In this document: in pieces, positions 14,710 through 64,000 of the stretch
How positions within the stretch are numbered: position 1 is the stretch's first letter
How the letters are laid out: every line of letters begins with the position of its first letter
From: Escherichia coli
GTDB lineage: Bacteria; Pseudomonadota; Gammaproteobacteria; Enterobacterales; Enterobacteriaceae
Assembly (NCBI RefSeq): GCF_044324875.1
Contig: NZ_CP172185.1
Reading direction: 5' to 3' (one strand)
DNA length: 64,000 bases
The notes under the pieces: model-generated
Told to the model about the DNA's origin: nothing
The model's database searches: none
The model's input: the letters and a program-made list of their open reading frames with translations, nothing else
Translations under genes and position numbers: made by a program

Positions 14710-15281
14710 GGTGGGCGATTCTAATTAGCCAACAGGATTCGCGCCACTCATTTTTCTATGCTTATATTTAGTTTTGCACCTTATTACTTCACTAGGTGAT
14801 CACTTTATTGATGGTTATTAAACCAATCACCAGCAAGAAGTGAAAAAACTGTGAGTAAGCGGGTGATAAATGGTAAAAGTCATCTTGCTATAACAAGGCT
14901 TGCAGTGGAATAATGAGGCCGTTTCCGTGTCCATCCTTGTTAAAACAAGAAATTTTACGGAATAACCCATTTTGCCCGACCGATCATCCACGCAGCAATG
15001 GCGTAAGACGTATTGATCTTTCAGGCAGTTAGCGGGCTGCGGGTTGCAGTCCTTACCGGTAGATGGAAATATTTCTGGAGAGTAATACCCAGTCTGTTTC
15101 TTTGATAATTGCGCTGTTTTTCCGCATGAAAAACGGGCAACCGACACTCTGCGCCTCTTTGAGCTGACGATAACCGTGAGGTTGGCGACGCGACTAGACA
15201 CGAGGCCATCGGTTCACACCCGGAAAGGCGTTACTTTGCCCGCAGCTTAGTCGTCAATGTAAGAATAATGAGTAAGTTACG
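14710..15281 (+). promoter_or_regulatory. rne promoter region and long autoregulated 5' UTR
   Basis: 572-nt non-coding leader upstream of rne; established knowledge that rne has a ~360-nt structured 5' UTR cleaved by RNase E; individual hairpins not mapped. Confidence 0.55.
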
Positions 15282-36951: not shown

Positions 36952-37002
36952 TTATCCTTTGTGTCCGGCAAAAACATCCCTTCAGCCGGAGCATAGAGAT
37001 TA

Positions 37003-46075: not shown

Positions 46076-46172
46076 GCCGAATGCGGCGTGAACGCCGTAT
46101 CCGACCTACAAAATCTTGCAAAATCAACACATTGCAGGAGCGATGTAGGCCTGATAAGCGTAGCGCATCAGG
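46076..46172. repeat. REP/BIME-type extragenic palindromes
   Basis: gccgaatgcggcgtgaacgccgtatccgacctac and gtaggcctgataagcgtagcgcatcaggc, inverted REP copies between yceK and opgH. Confidence 0.65.
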
Positions 46173-55642: not shown

Positions 55643-56396
55643 GTTGTCACCCTGGACCTGGTCGTACATTTAAGAAATTAAATCATTTCAACTTGGTTGT
55701 TAACGCAACCTGTATTTTGTTAACGCTGCGTTACGATGGAAAGTATGTCTGCGGAAATATTTTTAATAACTCACCCGCGCGTTGTATTTTTCTTTTTTTG
55801 TTCATACCAAAGTATTAAAACCCACGTAAATACGCTGTTATCTACGCAAAAAAATATTTTGTTTTCTTTTAAATCTCCGTTTTCCGCAATCAAAAATCAC
55901 CATACAGCCATTCTTCTTGCCCGTCGCTGATTGCTGCGATATGTCTTGCGCACAAGCCGTGACAAACCTCGTCTTTTTGCAGTAAAAAATTGTCCACGGT
56001 GGTGTAGAGAAAAAACAAGAACGTTTTACATGACGAAAGGACTACACCGAAATATTTTTTATATGCATTATTAGCAAGTTAGCACCATTTGTATGATTTT
56101 TTAAAATTGTGCAATAAAAACCAAATGTACAACTTTTCTATCATTTCTAAACTTAATAAAACCTTAAGATTAACATTTTAATATAACGAGTTACATTTAG
56201 TTACATGTTTAACACTTGATTTAAGATTTGTAATGGCTAGATTGAAATCAGATGTAATCCATTAGTTTTATATTTTACCCATTTAGGGCTGATTTATTAC
56301 TACACACAGCAGTGCAACATCTGTCAGTACTTCTGGTGCTTCTATTTTAGAGGCAGCTGTCAGGTGTGCGATCAATAAAAAAAGCGGGGTTTCATC
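55643..56396. promoter_or_regulatory. csgBAC / csgDEFG divergent regulatory region (csgD promoter, OmpR site, csgD 5' UTR, csgB promoter)
   Basis: 754-bp AT-rich intergenic region; OmpR-type direct repeat gttacatttagttacatgtttaac near 56189..56213; candidate csgD -10 TAGATT at 56238..56243, about 150 nt upstream of csgD ATG. Confidence 0.6.
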
Positions 56397-58805: not shown

Positions 58806-59297
58806 TCACGCTTTATTTTTGATTTGCTGCTCACGGTGAGCGGTCTTCGTACTACGCGCCGCCAGCCACAGGCCGCTGTTTTTCATTGCGTAACCAAATA
58901 CCAGTCCAAGCGCCAGCGAAGGTAACACCAGTTTCCAGTCACCCTGCCCGGCAAACGTCGCGCATGCGCCTATAAACGTCCCCGGAACAAATGAAAGCAA
59001 CAGCTGTTTCGCCTGAATACACATCAGAAACGCGACAATACCGGTTATGACATAACCGAGAATTTCCAGATGTGGTGCCAGTGCACTACCGTAAATAATG
59101 ACCATCGCCCACACCACGCCACTAAGCAGGGTTGCAGCGGAGATCGCCAGCCCTTTCAGCCCACCTTGCGGGCAGGCAAAGTAGGCCGTACAGCCCAGGA
59201 AGCCCGCCCAGCTTAGTAAGCCCAGGGAAACAGCCACCCATCCCCAGATACCGGAGAGAATGCCTGTTGTGATTGCAATAGAGAGAAGTATGTTCAT
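58806..59297 (-). CDS. ycdZ: DUF1097 inner membrane protein YcdZ
   Basis: ORF 58806..59345 trimmed to MNILLSIAITTG.. (163 aa); polytopic membrane protein. Confidence 0.88.
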   Translation of the reverse strand: MNILLSIAITTGILSGIWGWVAVSLGLLSWAGFLGCTAYFACPQGGLKGLAISAATLLSGVVWAMVIIYGSALAPHLEILGYVITGIVAFLMCIQAKQLLLSFVPGTFIGACATFAGQGDWKLVLPSLALGLVFGYAMKNSGLWLAARSTKTAHREQQIKNKA

Positions 59298-59398
59298 GCC
59301 GCGCATGATAGCAGAAAACGCGGCCATGAATGAGATCGAGCACACATTTTATGCAACAACAAATTATCTGTTGCAGTTATGAGTGATGCAGATCACAT

Positions 59399-61940: not shown

Positions 61941-62028
61941 GGTGAGGTGTCCGAGTGGCTGAAGGAGCACGCCTGGAAAGTGTGTATACGGCAACGTATC
62001 GGGGGTTCGAATCCCCCCCTCACCGCCA
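61941..62028 (+). tRNA. serX: tRNA-Ser (anticodon GGA)
   Basis: 88-nt sequence GGTGAGGTGTCCGAGTGGCTGAAGGAGCACGCCTGGAAAGTGTGTATACGGCAACGTATCGGGGGTTCGAATCCCCCCCTCACCGCCA with long variable arm and encoded CCA. Confidence 0.97.
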
Positions 62029-62036
62029 GATATTGA

Positions 62037-62069
62037 GCGCATGTTATTGTTTAACATGCGCTTTTTTTT
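62037..62069 (+). terminator. Rho-independent terminator of serX
   Basis: Hairpin gcgcatgtta-ttgtt-taacatgcgc followed by T8. Confidence 0.8.
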
Positions 62070-62180
62070 ATTTTTCCTTCCAGGCAGTATGCCACAGGGT
62101 ATGCCATCTGAAACCGGTTTGTATGAGCCTCGATCACATCTTATCAGACAATTTCCGATCTTTGAGCATACAGGGCAAAG

Positions 62181-63023
62181 CTATACTGCCAGCATGTCAG
62201 GATAGTGTCTGACGATAATATCATTCAGTCTGTCAACCAGTTCCGGTTTCCTGAACGTGATATGCGCGGAGCCTTTCCTGAAGTATCTGATGCTGAACAT
62301 CTCATCCTCATAGCATGCTTCACCCTGAACGGACCGGATGTGCTCATCCAGACGAATGAGGATATTGTCCCGGTCAGTGGGTATGGGTTTACCGCTGAAC
62401 AGATACAGTATCCTTTCCAGGTCGGCAAGCCGCCCGGCCTGCGGACCATGGTTCAGACCAAATCCCCACCAGTCCCATTTCACCAGGTTGTTGAGGATAA
62501 TCTTACTGCCGAATTTACAGGGTGACCCGCTGTTGTGCGTCCGGCTCAGTCCTCTGAAGAGGTTGATGACGCCCCGTTCAGCCATTTCATCCCTGTTACG
62601 GTGCAGTTGTTCAGACGTACTCAGGATATTCGCTTCGCTGATTTCCGGAAAATTATCCTCCTCCAGTGAACGGTACCATTCATCACGCGCCTGTGCATCC
62701 ATCAGACTCAGCATCCCGGAGCGTTGCATCAGGTCACGCCAGATTTCACGGTCAAGGTTCCGGGTGATGGCTTTCATTGCGGTTTCCGGTTTTTCCATCA
62801 GCCAGCAGCCACAGCGAAAATCCTGTTTCACGGCCCAGTCCCGGGCCGTTTTACCTCCGATGCTTTCTGTCATTACTGAGATTTCTGCCAGTTGCCGGAT
62901 AAGCCTTTCGGTTTGTTGCAGTGCTTCATTCCGTACCGTCACAACGTGCCGGATACTGGTTGAGCAGATAACGTCCGTATGTCCGTTAAGCGTTTCCGGA
63001 CGGGAGACTGTGATATCAGACAT
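62181..63023 (-). CDS. Uncharacterised island protein, DUF4942-like
   Basis: 280-aa ORF; family assignment from memory of proteins found downstream of cbtA in CP4-type islands, not from a search. Confidence 0.7.
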   Translation of the reverse strand: MSDITVSRPETLNGHTDVICSTSIRHVVTVRNEALQQTERLIRQLAEISVMTESIGGKTARDWAVKQDFRCGCWLMEKPETAMKAITRNLDREIWRDLMQRSGMLSLMDAQARDEWYRSLEEDNFPEISEANILSTSEQLHRNRDEMAERGVINLFRGLSRTHNSGSPCKFGSKIILNNLVKWDWWGFGLNHGPQAGRLADLERILYLFSGKPIPTDRDNILIRLDEHIRSVQGEACYEDEMFSIRYFRKGSAHITFRKPELVDRLNDIIVRHYPDMLAV

Positions 63024-63119
63024 AACCGATATTCCTTTTTGCAGATAAATGAAAACGCCAGCCGTATTCGGACTGGCGTCAGTGGAATGAATCGTGGTGA
63101 GTGAGATGATGAGTGAGAC

Positions 63120-63317
63120 TCACAGGTTCTGGTGCTGAAGCTGCAGCTGGCGCAGGGTGCGGATATCCTCCCTGGCCTGTTCGATACAGGGCAACAGTGC
63201 TGCCGAATCCGTTTTATCCTCATCGTTGTCGAAGATAATGCAGGAGCCGCAGTCGATATTGTCCTGCAGCCACGCAATCAGAATATCCGGTGCTGTTTCT
63301 GTGGTTAATGATTTCAT
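63120..63317 (-). CDS. Small uncharacterised island protein (65 aa) with CxxC motif
   Basis: 3' portion of ORF-track entry 63120..63704, starting at internal Met (MKSLTTETAPDILIAWLQDNIDCGSC..), 20 nt downstream of the preceding gene stop; upstream part of that ORF overlaps the better-supported gene in another frame. Confidence 0.5.
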   Translation of the reverse strand: MKSLTTETAPDILIAWLQDNIDCGSCIIFDNDEDKTDSAALLPCIEQAREDIRTLRQLQLQHQNL

Positions 63318-63336
63318 ACGGTGTCTTTTGTCCCGG

Positions 63337-63825
63337 TTACCAGTCGAAAGTGGGAAAACCCGGCAGACATTCAGCGCCGGCATCCAGATGAATGAGACTG
63401 ACGCCATAACGCCGGATGAGAGTGACAACCAGACGACGAAACGTTTTTGACAGACCCAGGCGTTTAAGCCGCAGAGCCGGGTACGACCACGCATCAGTAC
63501 GTAACAGATATCCGCTGCCTGTAAAATGAATCCATTCTGATTCGCCGTTGTCATTCGTCTGATGCGACAGCGAGTACAGCCAGGCATTGTCCTGCTCCGT
63601 GATATGTGCGGTACTGCAGCGTATGCCGGTAAGGGCCGCAAATGGTGGCATGCAGTCTGCTGAGGTCCGGTCAGATTCATCAGCAACACGAAGGGAACAG
63701 CCATTATCGCAGACCACGTTAATCAGTTCAGCGAGATTAACACCATCGACGTCAGCGACAATGCGCCCCATGTTCAGTGCCTGTACGTTAACGCTGTCGG
63801 CTTCCAGTGTCAGGGACAGTTTCAT
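63337..63825 (-). CDS. Uncharacterised protein downstream of cbtA (YeeW-like position)
   Basis: 162-aa ORF whose ATG overlaps the cbtA stop in an ATGA junction, implying translational coupling with the toxin gene. Confidence 0.75.
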   Translation of the reverse strand: MKLSLTLEADSVNVQALNMGRIVADVDGVNLAELINVVCDNGCSLRVADESDRTSADCMPPFAALTGIRCSTAHITEQDNAWLYSLSHQTNDNGESEWIHFTGSGYLLRTDAWSYPALRLKRLGLSKTFRRLVVTLIRRYGVSLIHLDAGAECLPGFPTFDW

Positions 63826-64000
63826 GGTTTCACCTCACAGTGTTTACCCAGGGTGATGTTGTTCACCATTCTGTAGTGGCTGCGGGTCATCAGGCCGGTC
63901 GCCCGGCGGGCCCGGAGAATATCAATGCTGCTGATTAACTGCGATGAAGCTCCTGCGCTGAATCCCGGCTGGTCGGTACGCACCAGCGCGTATTTTTCCA
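63822..64000 (-). CDS. cbtA: Type IV toxin-antitoxin system toxin, CbtA/YeeV family, 3' end only (gene starts beyond window)
   Basis: Hand translation of reverse strand gives ..EKYALVRTDQPGFSAGASSQLISSIDILRARRATGLMTRSHYRMVNNITLGKHCEVKP-stop, closely matching the C-terminus of YeeV/CbtA-family toxins. Confidence 0.85.
   Translation of the reverse strand, partial: EKYALVRTDQPGFSAGASSQLISSIDILRARRATGLMTRSHYRMVNNITLGKHCEVKP

Follow-up and report, generated by a model that had tools for sequence, protein, structure and literature searches.

Among the closest described relatives of the gene discussed here are the DUF4942 (domain of unknown function) genes of plasmid leading regions. In the supplementary table of Samuel et al., 2024 (PMC11541004, Suppl. 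Table 1), leading-region-enriched family 24, entered as 'Uncharacterized; DUF4942; Methyltransferase', has 2171 members (false discovery rate p=0) with a median open reading frame (ORF) position of 1 from the origin of transfer (oriT), and their strand is the one that allows expression from the T-strand. DUF4942 also makes up family 76, with 551 members and a median position of 6, and DUF905, KlcA, DUF5983 and a YafZ/YubP-type family (labelled DUF945) are also leading-region-enriched. For the pOXA-48 homologue, Orf26, transposon sequencing indicates that the gene is non-essential both for plasmid maintenance and for K-12-to-K-12 transfer (log2 fold change +0.78), and klcA behaves in the same way (PMC12365149 supplement). 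Here we describe a DUF4942 gene of the Escherichia coli chromosome, the terminal gene of an island inserted at the tRNA gene serX, which lies in a stretch of 64,000 nucleotides of contig NZ_CP172185.1 that we refer to as the window. Taking the family as a whole, we favour the reading that DUF4942 is a non-catalytic, methyltransferase-linked accessory in establishment or anti-restriction, to which we assign a probability of roughly 40%.

The window gene is almost certainly a member of the DUF4942 family. Its product, 280 aa from an ATG-initiated frame of 280 codons in the ORF listing of the window, matches Pfam PF13708 (DUF4942) with E=1.5e-60 and 204.6 bits against a cut-off of 25, residues 87-276 covering the profile from position 1 to 190 of 190. 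Identical DNA is present in several complete E. coli genomes, where RefSeq annotates a 'DUF4942 domain-containing protein', for example WP_029490447.1 in MS 119-7, with coordinates equal to those of the window ORF. The analysis confirmed that the ORF is intact, far beyond what chance would give, with dN/dS among paralogues of 0.09-0.25. A sequence-only reading of the window had proposed the family and had described a full-length, intact ORF on accessory DNA beside a tRNA gene. The Pfam match bears out the first point and the second holds as well; the gene has a ribosome binding site and its stop codon lies 152 bp from the 3' end of serX; in the profile search that it had suggested, no well-characterised family claims the protein. 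Nor did we find anything to contradict its statement that such proteins have no demonstrated function: literature mentions of DUF4942 are incidental, no functional study or assay of any family member was found in them, PADLOC gave no match, NCBIfam gave a sub-threshold chance match only, and the PDB, queried by sequence with the protein alone and with a 107-sequence profile, returned nothing at E<=10. The window copy is thus an ordinary, already annotated member of a known family of unknown function.

By megablast the gene is found in 3778 of 5426 complete E. coli genomes (~70%), at a median of two copies (1-9), nearly all of them chromosomal. Most pairs of mainstream alleles give dN/dS values of 0.09-0.19 and the window allele compared with other copies gives 0.19-0.25 (Nei-Gojobori). 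Nine of the ten E. coli loci that were read are intact, the tenth (L026) having an internal stop; given this and dN/dS values well below 1, the gene is not a pseudogene in most islands; its being one there is what the sequence-only reading had named as speaking against it. An expectation that K-12 ykfN/yoeF are DUF4942 remnants was not upheld, as a tblastn search of the CP4-6 and CP4-44 ends in K-12 turned up no DUF4942. Beyond E. coli the family comprises 1996 representatives at 50% clustering (E<=1e-3), most of them stand-alone proteins of 255-295 aa, and it is confined to mobile elements.

A tblastn search of PLSDB, for which the figures cover the matches listed, found a homologue on at least 5000 plasmids, and 4564 (91%) of those counted are predicted to be conjugative. 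The genes of IncK/Z, IncI-like and IncL plasmids are 33-36% identical to the window gene product over 94-95% of the query (E 1e-35 to 1e-41). On an IncK2/Z plasmid, DUF4942 lies one small ORF from the oriT/mobA-relaxase region and is transcribed towards oriT, with ParB, PsiB, PsiA and ArdA genes upstream; on a pOXA-48-type IncL plasmid it stands among Hha/YmoA, DUF1380, KlcA and Ssb genes, ahead of and close to the relaxase gene; and an IncP-like contig has the order korA-incC-korB-DUF4942-hypothetical-C5 methylase. The gene is also found in phage early regions, on phage-like contigs and in 45 deposited phage records. No ORF lies between the window gene and the island end, and the gene is read in the direction of that end, much as the plasmid copies are transcribed towards oriT; a comparison of the island tail (62029-62180) with the IncK2/Z oriT region and with other island tails gave chance matches of <=9 nt only, and thus nothing that speaks for an oriT in this tail. 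Beyond the CbtA toxin gene, the arm of the identical MS 119-7 island has genes for YeeU antitoxin, a hypothetical protein, DUF987, RadC, a KlcA/ArdB-type antirestriction protein, DUF932, DUF905, Ag43 and a GTPase, all in a single common orientation, and the arm gene of the YafZ/YubP-type family is the one that RefSeq labels DUF932 (L001 21000-26000). Because the DUF905, KlcA, DUF5983 and YafZ/YubP-type families are themselves leading-region-enriched, most of the other genes of this CP4 arm belong to leading-region families, which suggests that the arm, with all its genes pointing to the island end, is leading-region-like.

The methyltransferase connection is provided by fused proteins of 467-570 aa (85 clusters), in which an N-terminal DUF4942 is followed by a C-terminal S-adenosylmethionine-dependent amino-methyltransferase core with EPSAGxG (motif I) and NPP[FY] (motif IV). 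They come from Pseudomonas, Aeromonas and Rhizobium phages, IncHI2 plasmids and metagenomes, and include gp22 of Pseudomonas phage phiPSA1, gp33 of Aeromonas phage 2_D05, the metagenomic proteins P0187, P0204 and P0250 (metagenomic fused forms are 467-468 aa) and a 562-aa IncHI2 protein with weak N6_Mtase and Eco57I Pfam matches. When 16 fused homologues were scanned by regular expression, NPP[FY] was present in all 16 and an EPSAGxG-type motif I in 12. Their catalytic core weakly resembles M.TaqI and HemK, and the proteins end directly after it, without a recognition domain of their own. Residues common to fused and stand-alone forms are W95, W116, P126, T136, S160, N166, D/E201, L202, H254, N267 and P275. 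Adjacency is also seen on occasion: in Halomonas phage QHHSV-1 the last of three consecutive methylase genes is overlapped at its end by a stand-alone DUF4942 gene, and in locus L027 the two parts are split, a small FFTP…LEPTCGKG…NPPF methylase that resembles the fused catalytic half lying separately, 3.9 kb away. In another locus, from IMG/VR (L050 4106-5662, minus strand), the distance is 339 bp: there a stand-alone DUF4942 gene has, upstream of it and on the other strand, the end of a gene for a type I HsdM-like methylase.

An AlphaFold2 (AF2) model of the window protein, built on the 107-sequence alignment, is confident (predicted local distance difference test score, pLDDT, 88.5; predicted template-modelling score, pTM, 0.80). 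From the N-terminus, which is disordered, the model passes through a long helix (24-53) and a helical bundle (79-160) to a small alpha+beta domain at the C-terminus (174-273). Of the four residues that are strictly invariant in the alignment (W95, D201, H254 and N267, all present in the window protein), three are located in this last domain. The fold comparison that the sequence-only reading had proposed found no solved relative of AF2 models, the best Foldseek E-value being 0.25. The protein is near-neutral, with an isoelectric point (pI) of 6.3 against a family median of 7.6, and the C-terminal consensus is rich in K and R; charge and C-terminus would be compatible with nucleic-acid binding. 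A possible Pfam lead, kleA_kleC, was dropped: it matched weakly in seven of 107 members (best E 0.027) and was not reproduced in ten members searched singly.

Whether DUF4942 is an establishment or anti-defence factor of horizontally transferred DNA is, in our judgement, an even bet. We lean on the confinement of the family to mobile elements, the first-in position on plasmids, the company of KlcA, ArdA, PsiB and Ssb, dispensability where there is no barrier, and the repeated occurrence of fusions with a minimal N6-adenine-type methylase; that Orf26 can be dispensed with in K-12 matings is as expected of a factor needed only against host barriers. DUF4942 would then be an anti-restriction or restriction-alleviating accessory that is produced soon after entry of the element into a new cell. 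The mechanism is the more tentative part, and we are doubtful that it is both methyltransferase-linked and non-catalytic. If it is, DUF4942 would be a binding module for nucleic acid, for an N6-adenine methyltransferase or for both. In the phage and IncHI2 fusions, it probably supplies substrate binding to a minimal methyltransferase that has no recognition domain, and the stand-alone protein could act in trans on a methyltransferase of the element or the host, on a type I restriction-modification (R-M) complex or on the incoming DNA, and would thereby tip the balance from restriction to protection. It is tempting to go further and imagine a new-fold, first-entering establishment factor that captures or redirects N6-adenine methyltransferases (such as type I HsdM complexes, in the manner of Ral), or else the DNA-binding half of a split orphan methylase, but this we regard as a long shot. 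As corollaries of this wider reading, the CP4 arm from DUF932 to DUF4942 would be the leading region of an element that is, or formerly was, transferred by conjugation, and a transfer origin would be at or beyond the DUF4942 end.

A number of observations weigh against the favoured reading. The invariant W, D, H and N could mark a catalytic site, and target-recognition domains are usually variable. The null phenotype in pOXA-48 fits equally well with no role in conjugation at all. The methyltransferase link rests on domain fusion (a Rosetta-stone argument) and occasional adjacency, and the CP4 island arm of the window type encodes no methylase. Among 33 non-redundant IMG/VR (viral-contig) stand-alone loci, retrieved with a five-sequence DUF4942 alignment, only five have a recognisable methylase within 6 kb, so that adjacency is weak evidence and the domain fusions are the stronger link; clustering of the neighbour ORFs of these 33 locus groups yielded no dominant methylase neighbour. 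Finally, the window allele is without W161 and N166, its dN/dS is about twice that of the mainstream clade, and a member of its own clade has a stop codon.

The conserved residues are the natural starting point for a different view, in which DUF4942 has a catalytic activity of its own on nucleic acid, as a nuclease or by modifying bases or ends, and works through D201, H254 and N267, and the fusions are bifunctional like single-chain R-M enzymes. All four invariant residues are kept in stand-alone and fused forms alike, H254 is placed by AF2 on a beta-strand followed by the helix that bears N267, the fused domain order loosely recalls type IIG/IIL enzymes, with the weak Eco57I/N6_Mtase match of the IncHI2 protein, and Rpn family nucleases are also abundant in plasmid leading regions (PMC11541004 table). 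We nevertheless think it unlikely. That DUF4942 should be a DNA methyltransferase or a subunit of a restriction enzyme has practically no chance of being right. It is what legacy names on some cluster members would imply ('restriction methylase', 'restriction endonuclease subunit M'), as would a match to PHROG 6263 'DNA methyltransferase' (E=1.9e-16), but a regular-expression scan of the window protein found neither the motif I that binds S-adenosylmethionine (SAM) nor the catalytic motif IV, (D/N/S)PP(Y/F/W/H), and the protein does not have a Rossmann-type class I methyltransferase fold. The missing motifs and fold refute catalytic methylase identity, and, to judge from its sequence, the name 'restriction methylase' is wrong for the window protein because it has neither methyltransferase motif. 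Another alternative concerns the toxin end of the island. The ten E. coli loci, read at serX and five other chromosomal sites, all have YeeU/CbeA-CbtA-DUF5983-DUF957-DUF4942 in this order and in one orientation, in agreement with the sequence-only reading that proteins of this type recur at the toxin end of CP4-type islands, and CbtA, RadC and YeeU are the commonest shared neighbours in the IMG/VR loci. DUF4942 might on these grounds be a third component or regulator of the CbtA/CbeA (YeeV/YeeU) type IV toxin-antitoxin module, or a regulator of island expression. Yet plasmid and phage copies occur without CbtA or CbeA, K-12 CP4-44 has a working CbtA/CbeA pair without DUF4942, a terminator-like hairpin and a gap of 84-96 bp (in the E. 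coli loci read) separate DUF957 from DUF4942, and no DNA-binding regulator domain was detected in DUF4942 with Pfam, all of which makes such a role very improbable.

A separate question is whether the window allele itself is still in full working order, because in its variant loop (Table 1) it has lost W161 and N166 and, elsewhere, has S137 instead of the nearly invariant F137; each of these three positions is conserved in at least 90% of the 107-sequence alignment, and N166 is shared by every one of the six other E. coli alleles and by 16 of 16 fused homologues. Confidence in the model falls here too, with pLDDT dropping to 63 in the block of residues 161-170. The loop is a cluster of substitutions; an origin by compensated frameshift was considered and discarded, as the alternative frames of the DNA give no canonical motif. 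The clade of the window allele (>=90% nucleotide identity) is rare, with 24 of 5426 genomes, and the loop varies within it (RTHNSG, RMHNNR, RTHNSR and RTQNSG). Within-clade dN/dS is 0.16-0.30, above the 0.09-0.15 of most pairs within the mainstream clade, L026 with its internal stop is a clade member, and the coding sequence is split in three genomes. These features, together with the changes from S-W-N-Y-K-T-N to S-R-T-H-N-S-G and from F137 to S, are what one would expect of an allele drifting towards loss of function, an intact-looking but compromised copy carried along by the island. Against this, dN/dS values stay well under 1, all four of the strictly invariant residues and most of the nearly invariant ones are retained, the spread of the clade takes in four or more integration sites, and a changed loop could mean altered specificity instead of decay; we consider such drift improbable. 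As far as dN/dS can tell, the window copy is still constrained, less so than mainstream alleles, and it may be weakened or altered in function.

The remaining features of the island edge are collected in Table 1. To the left of serX the window contains csgBA/csgDEFG, ycdZ, ycdY, ycdX and ghrA. K-12 and the window diverge directly past the 3' end of serX, where the O157 serX island is conserved; island or accessory DNA therefore starts at 62029, and it follows that the terminator hairpin of serX is supplied by the island. Both GTATGCCA repeats of the terminus are kept in the O157 serX island tail, and they may be arm-type binding sites for the island integrase/excisionase or may be due to chance. 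A 194-aa ORF at 63120-63704 on the minus strand was set aside, as it results from extending the DUF957 frame back to an earlier start, which takes it across DUF5983 in another frame, and RefSeq does not have it as a gene.

Table 1. Features at the serX edge of the island, in window coordinates.
Feature	Position	Strand	Evidence
tRNA-Ser(GGA) serX, island integration site	61941..62028	+	ARAGORN, Rfam RF00005, RefSeq
Non-coding island terminus, serX to DUF4942 stop codon	62029..62180	.	K-12 / O157 comparison
serX terminator hairpin, within island terminus	62035-62063		Hairpin scan
Two GTATGCCA direct repeats, island terminus	62087-62094, 62099-62106		Exact copies, 12-nt spacing
DUF4942 protein gene, terminal gene of serX island	62181..63023	-	ORF, Pfam, RefSeq WP_029490447.1, dN/dS
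Variant loop S-R-T-H-N-S-G-S-P, codons 160-168	62520..62546	-	Alignment with family S-W-(D/N)-Y-K-T-N-x-P
Shine-Dalgarno AGGA, 9 nt 5' of DUF4942 ATG	63033..63036	-	Read from sequence
Terminator-like hairpin, DUF957-DUF4942 interval	63054..63080	-	Consensus scan; 10 pairs, 6 G-C; weak T-tail
DUF957 small protein gene, 65 aa, upstream neighbour	63120..63317	-	RefSeq on identical DNA
DUF5983 (YeeW-like) gene, 162 aa	63337..63825	-	Pfam DUF5983_N E=1.5e-29, DUF5983 E=2.1e-22
CbtA-family type IV toxin gene, 3' part, off window end	63822..64000	-	RefSeq on identical DNA

In the ten E. coli loci, what comes after DUF4942 is either cargo genes or the edge of the island, in the form of serX or of a partial repeat of a tRNA 3' end ~110 bp downstream, and the DUF4942 end of the island appears to accept cargo; some of these loci have one upstream arm gene frameshifted or truncated. 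A DUF6088 gene and a frameshifted AbiEii toxin gene lie between DUF4942 and the island edge in an ST131 strain (L015 3915-5236), as does the gene of an EAL-domain protein in strain EV36 (L016 3917-5452). K-12 (NC_000913.3, L019 ~2350-2420), which has no serX island, carries a partial second serX 3' end (TGGCGGTGAGGGGGGGATT) ~150 bp past the tRNA, and this copy looks like the attachment-site (att) repeat scar of a lost element. The ycdZ (DUF1097) gene is split by ISEc62 in MS 119-7 (L001 14778-17398) and is an intact ORF in the window (58806-59345), so that the window represents a different strain background. Rfam also identified in the whole window the small RNA SraB (12892-13060), the rne 5' untranslated region element (14921-15257), the PyrC leader (36953-37002), ES036 (46110-46152) and ES056 (56250-56341, in the csgB-csgD intergenic region), all of them expected E. 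coli core features.

DUF4942 is very common in E. coli genomes, in phages and on conjugative resistance plasmids (pOXA-48, IncI/K, IncHI2), and it is a family that occupies the first-entering position of plasmids and has no solved structural relative. Were it to prove anti-restriction or methylation-assisting, it would be a widely distributed factor in determining which hosts plasmids and islands can enter, and a candidate for interventions against the dissemination of resistance plasmids. The attraction lies in the family as a whole, as an uncharacterised target; the window locus itself adds little, its rare degenerate-loop allele being at most a natural loop variant for structure-function work.

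How, then, does DUF4942 compare with what is already known? Like it, ArdA/Ocr, ArdB/KlcA and Ral/Lar have their niche in leading regions, island arms and phage early regions, and klcA, like the DUF4942 homologue, is dispensable in matings where there is no restriction barrier. An action like that of Ral on type I methylases would fit the DUF4942-methyltransferase fusions. Unlike known anti-restriction proteins, DUF4942 is not acidic, with its pI of 6.3, and shows no similarity to them in sequence or fold: Pfam, PADLOC and the PDB gave no Antirestrict, ArdA or Ocr match for the window protein. A DNA mimic of the ArdA/Ocr kind is ruled against by both the pI and the want of a sequence or fold match. 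At their N-terminus the fusions carry a DUF4942 homologous to that of the window protein, invariant residues included, but they differ from this protein in their C-terminal SAM-dependent catalytic domain of the N6-adenine type. The plasmid leading-region proteins (YdiA/YgfB of IncI/IncF-type plasmids, Orf26/'z1226' of pOXA-48) are of the same Pfam family and of similar size (~265-290 aa), and like the window gene theirs are on transferred DNA beside KlcA/ArdB-type antirestriction genes, with DUF905, YafZ/YubP-type and RadC/JAB families common to plasmid leading regions and the CP4 arm; the window gene differs in being chromosomal, at an att/tRNA junction and not at oriT, and in lacking the W161/N166 loop. 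Another relative is the orthologue of O157:H7 SS52, which likewise ends a CP4-type arm at the serX junction, the 150-bp tail being conserved as well, and which, at only 83% nucleotide identity to the window allele, keeps the canonical W-N-Y-K-T-N loop.

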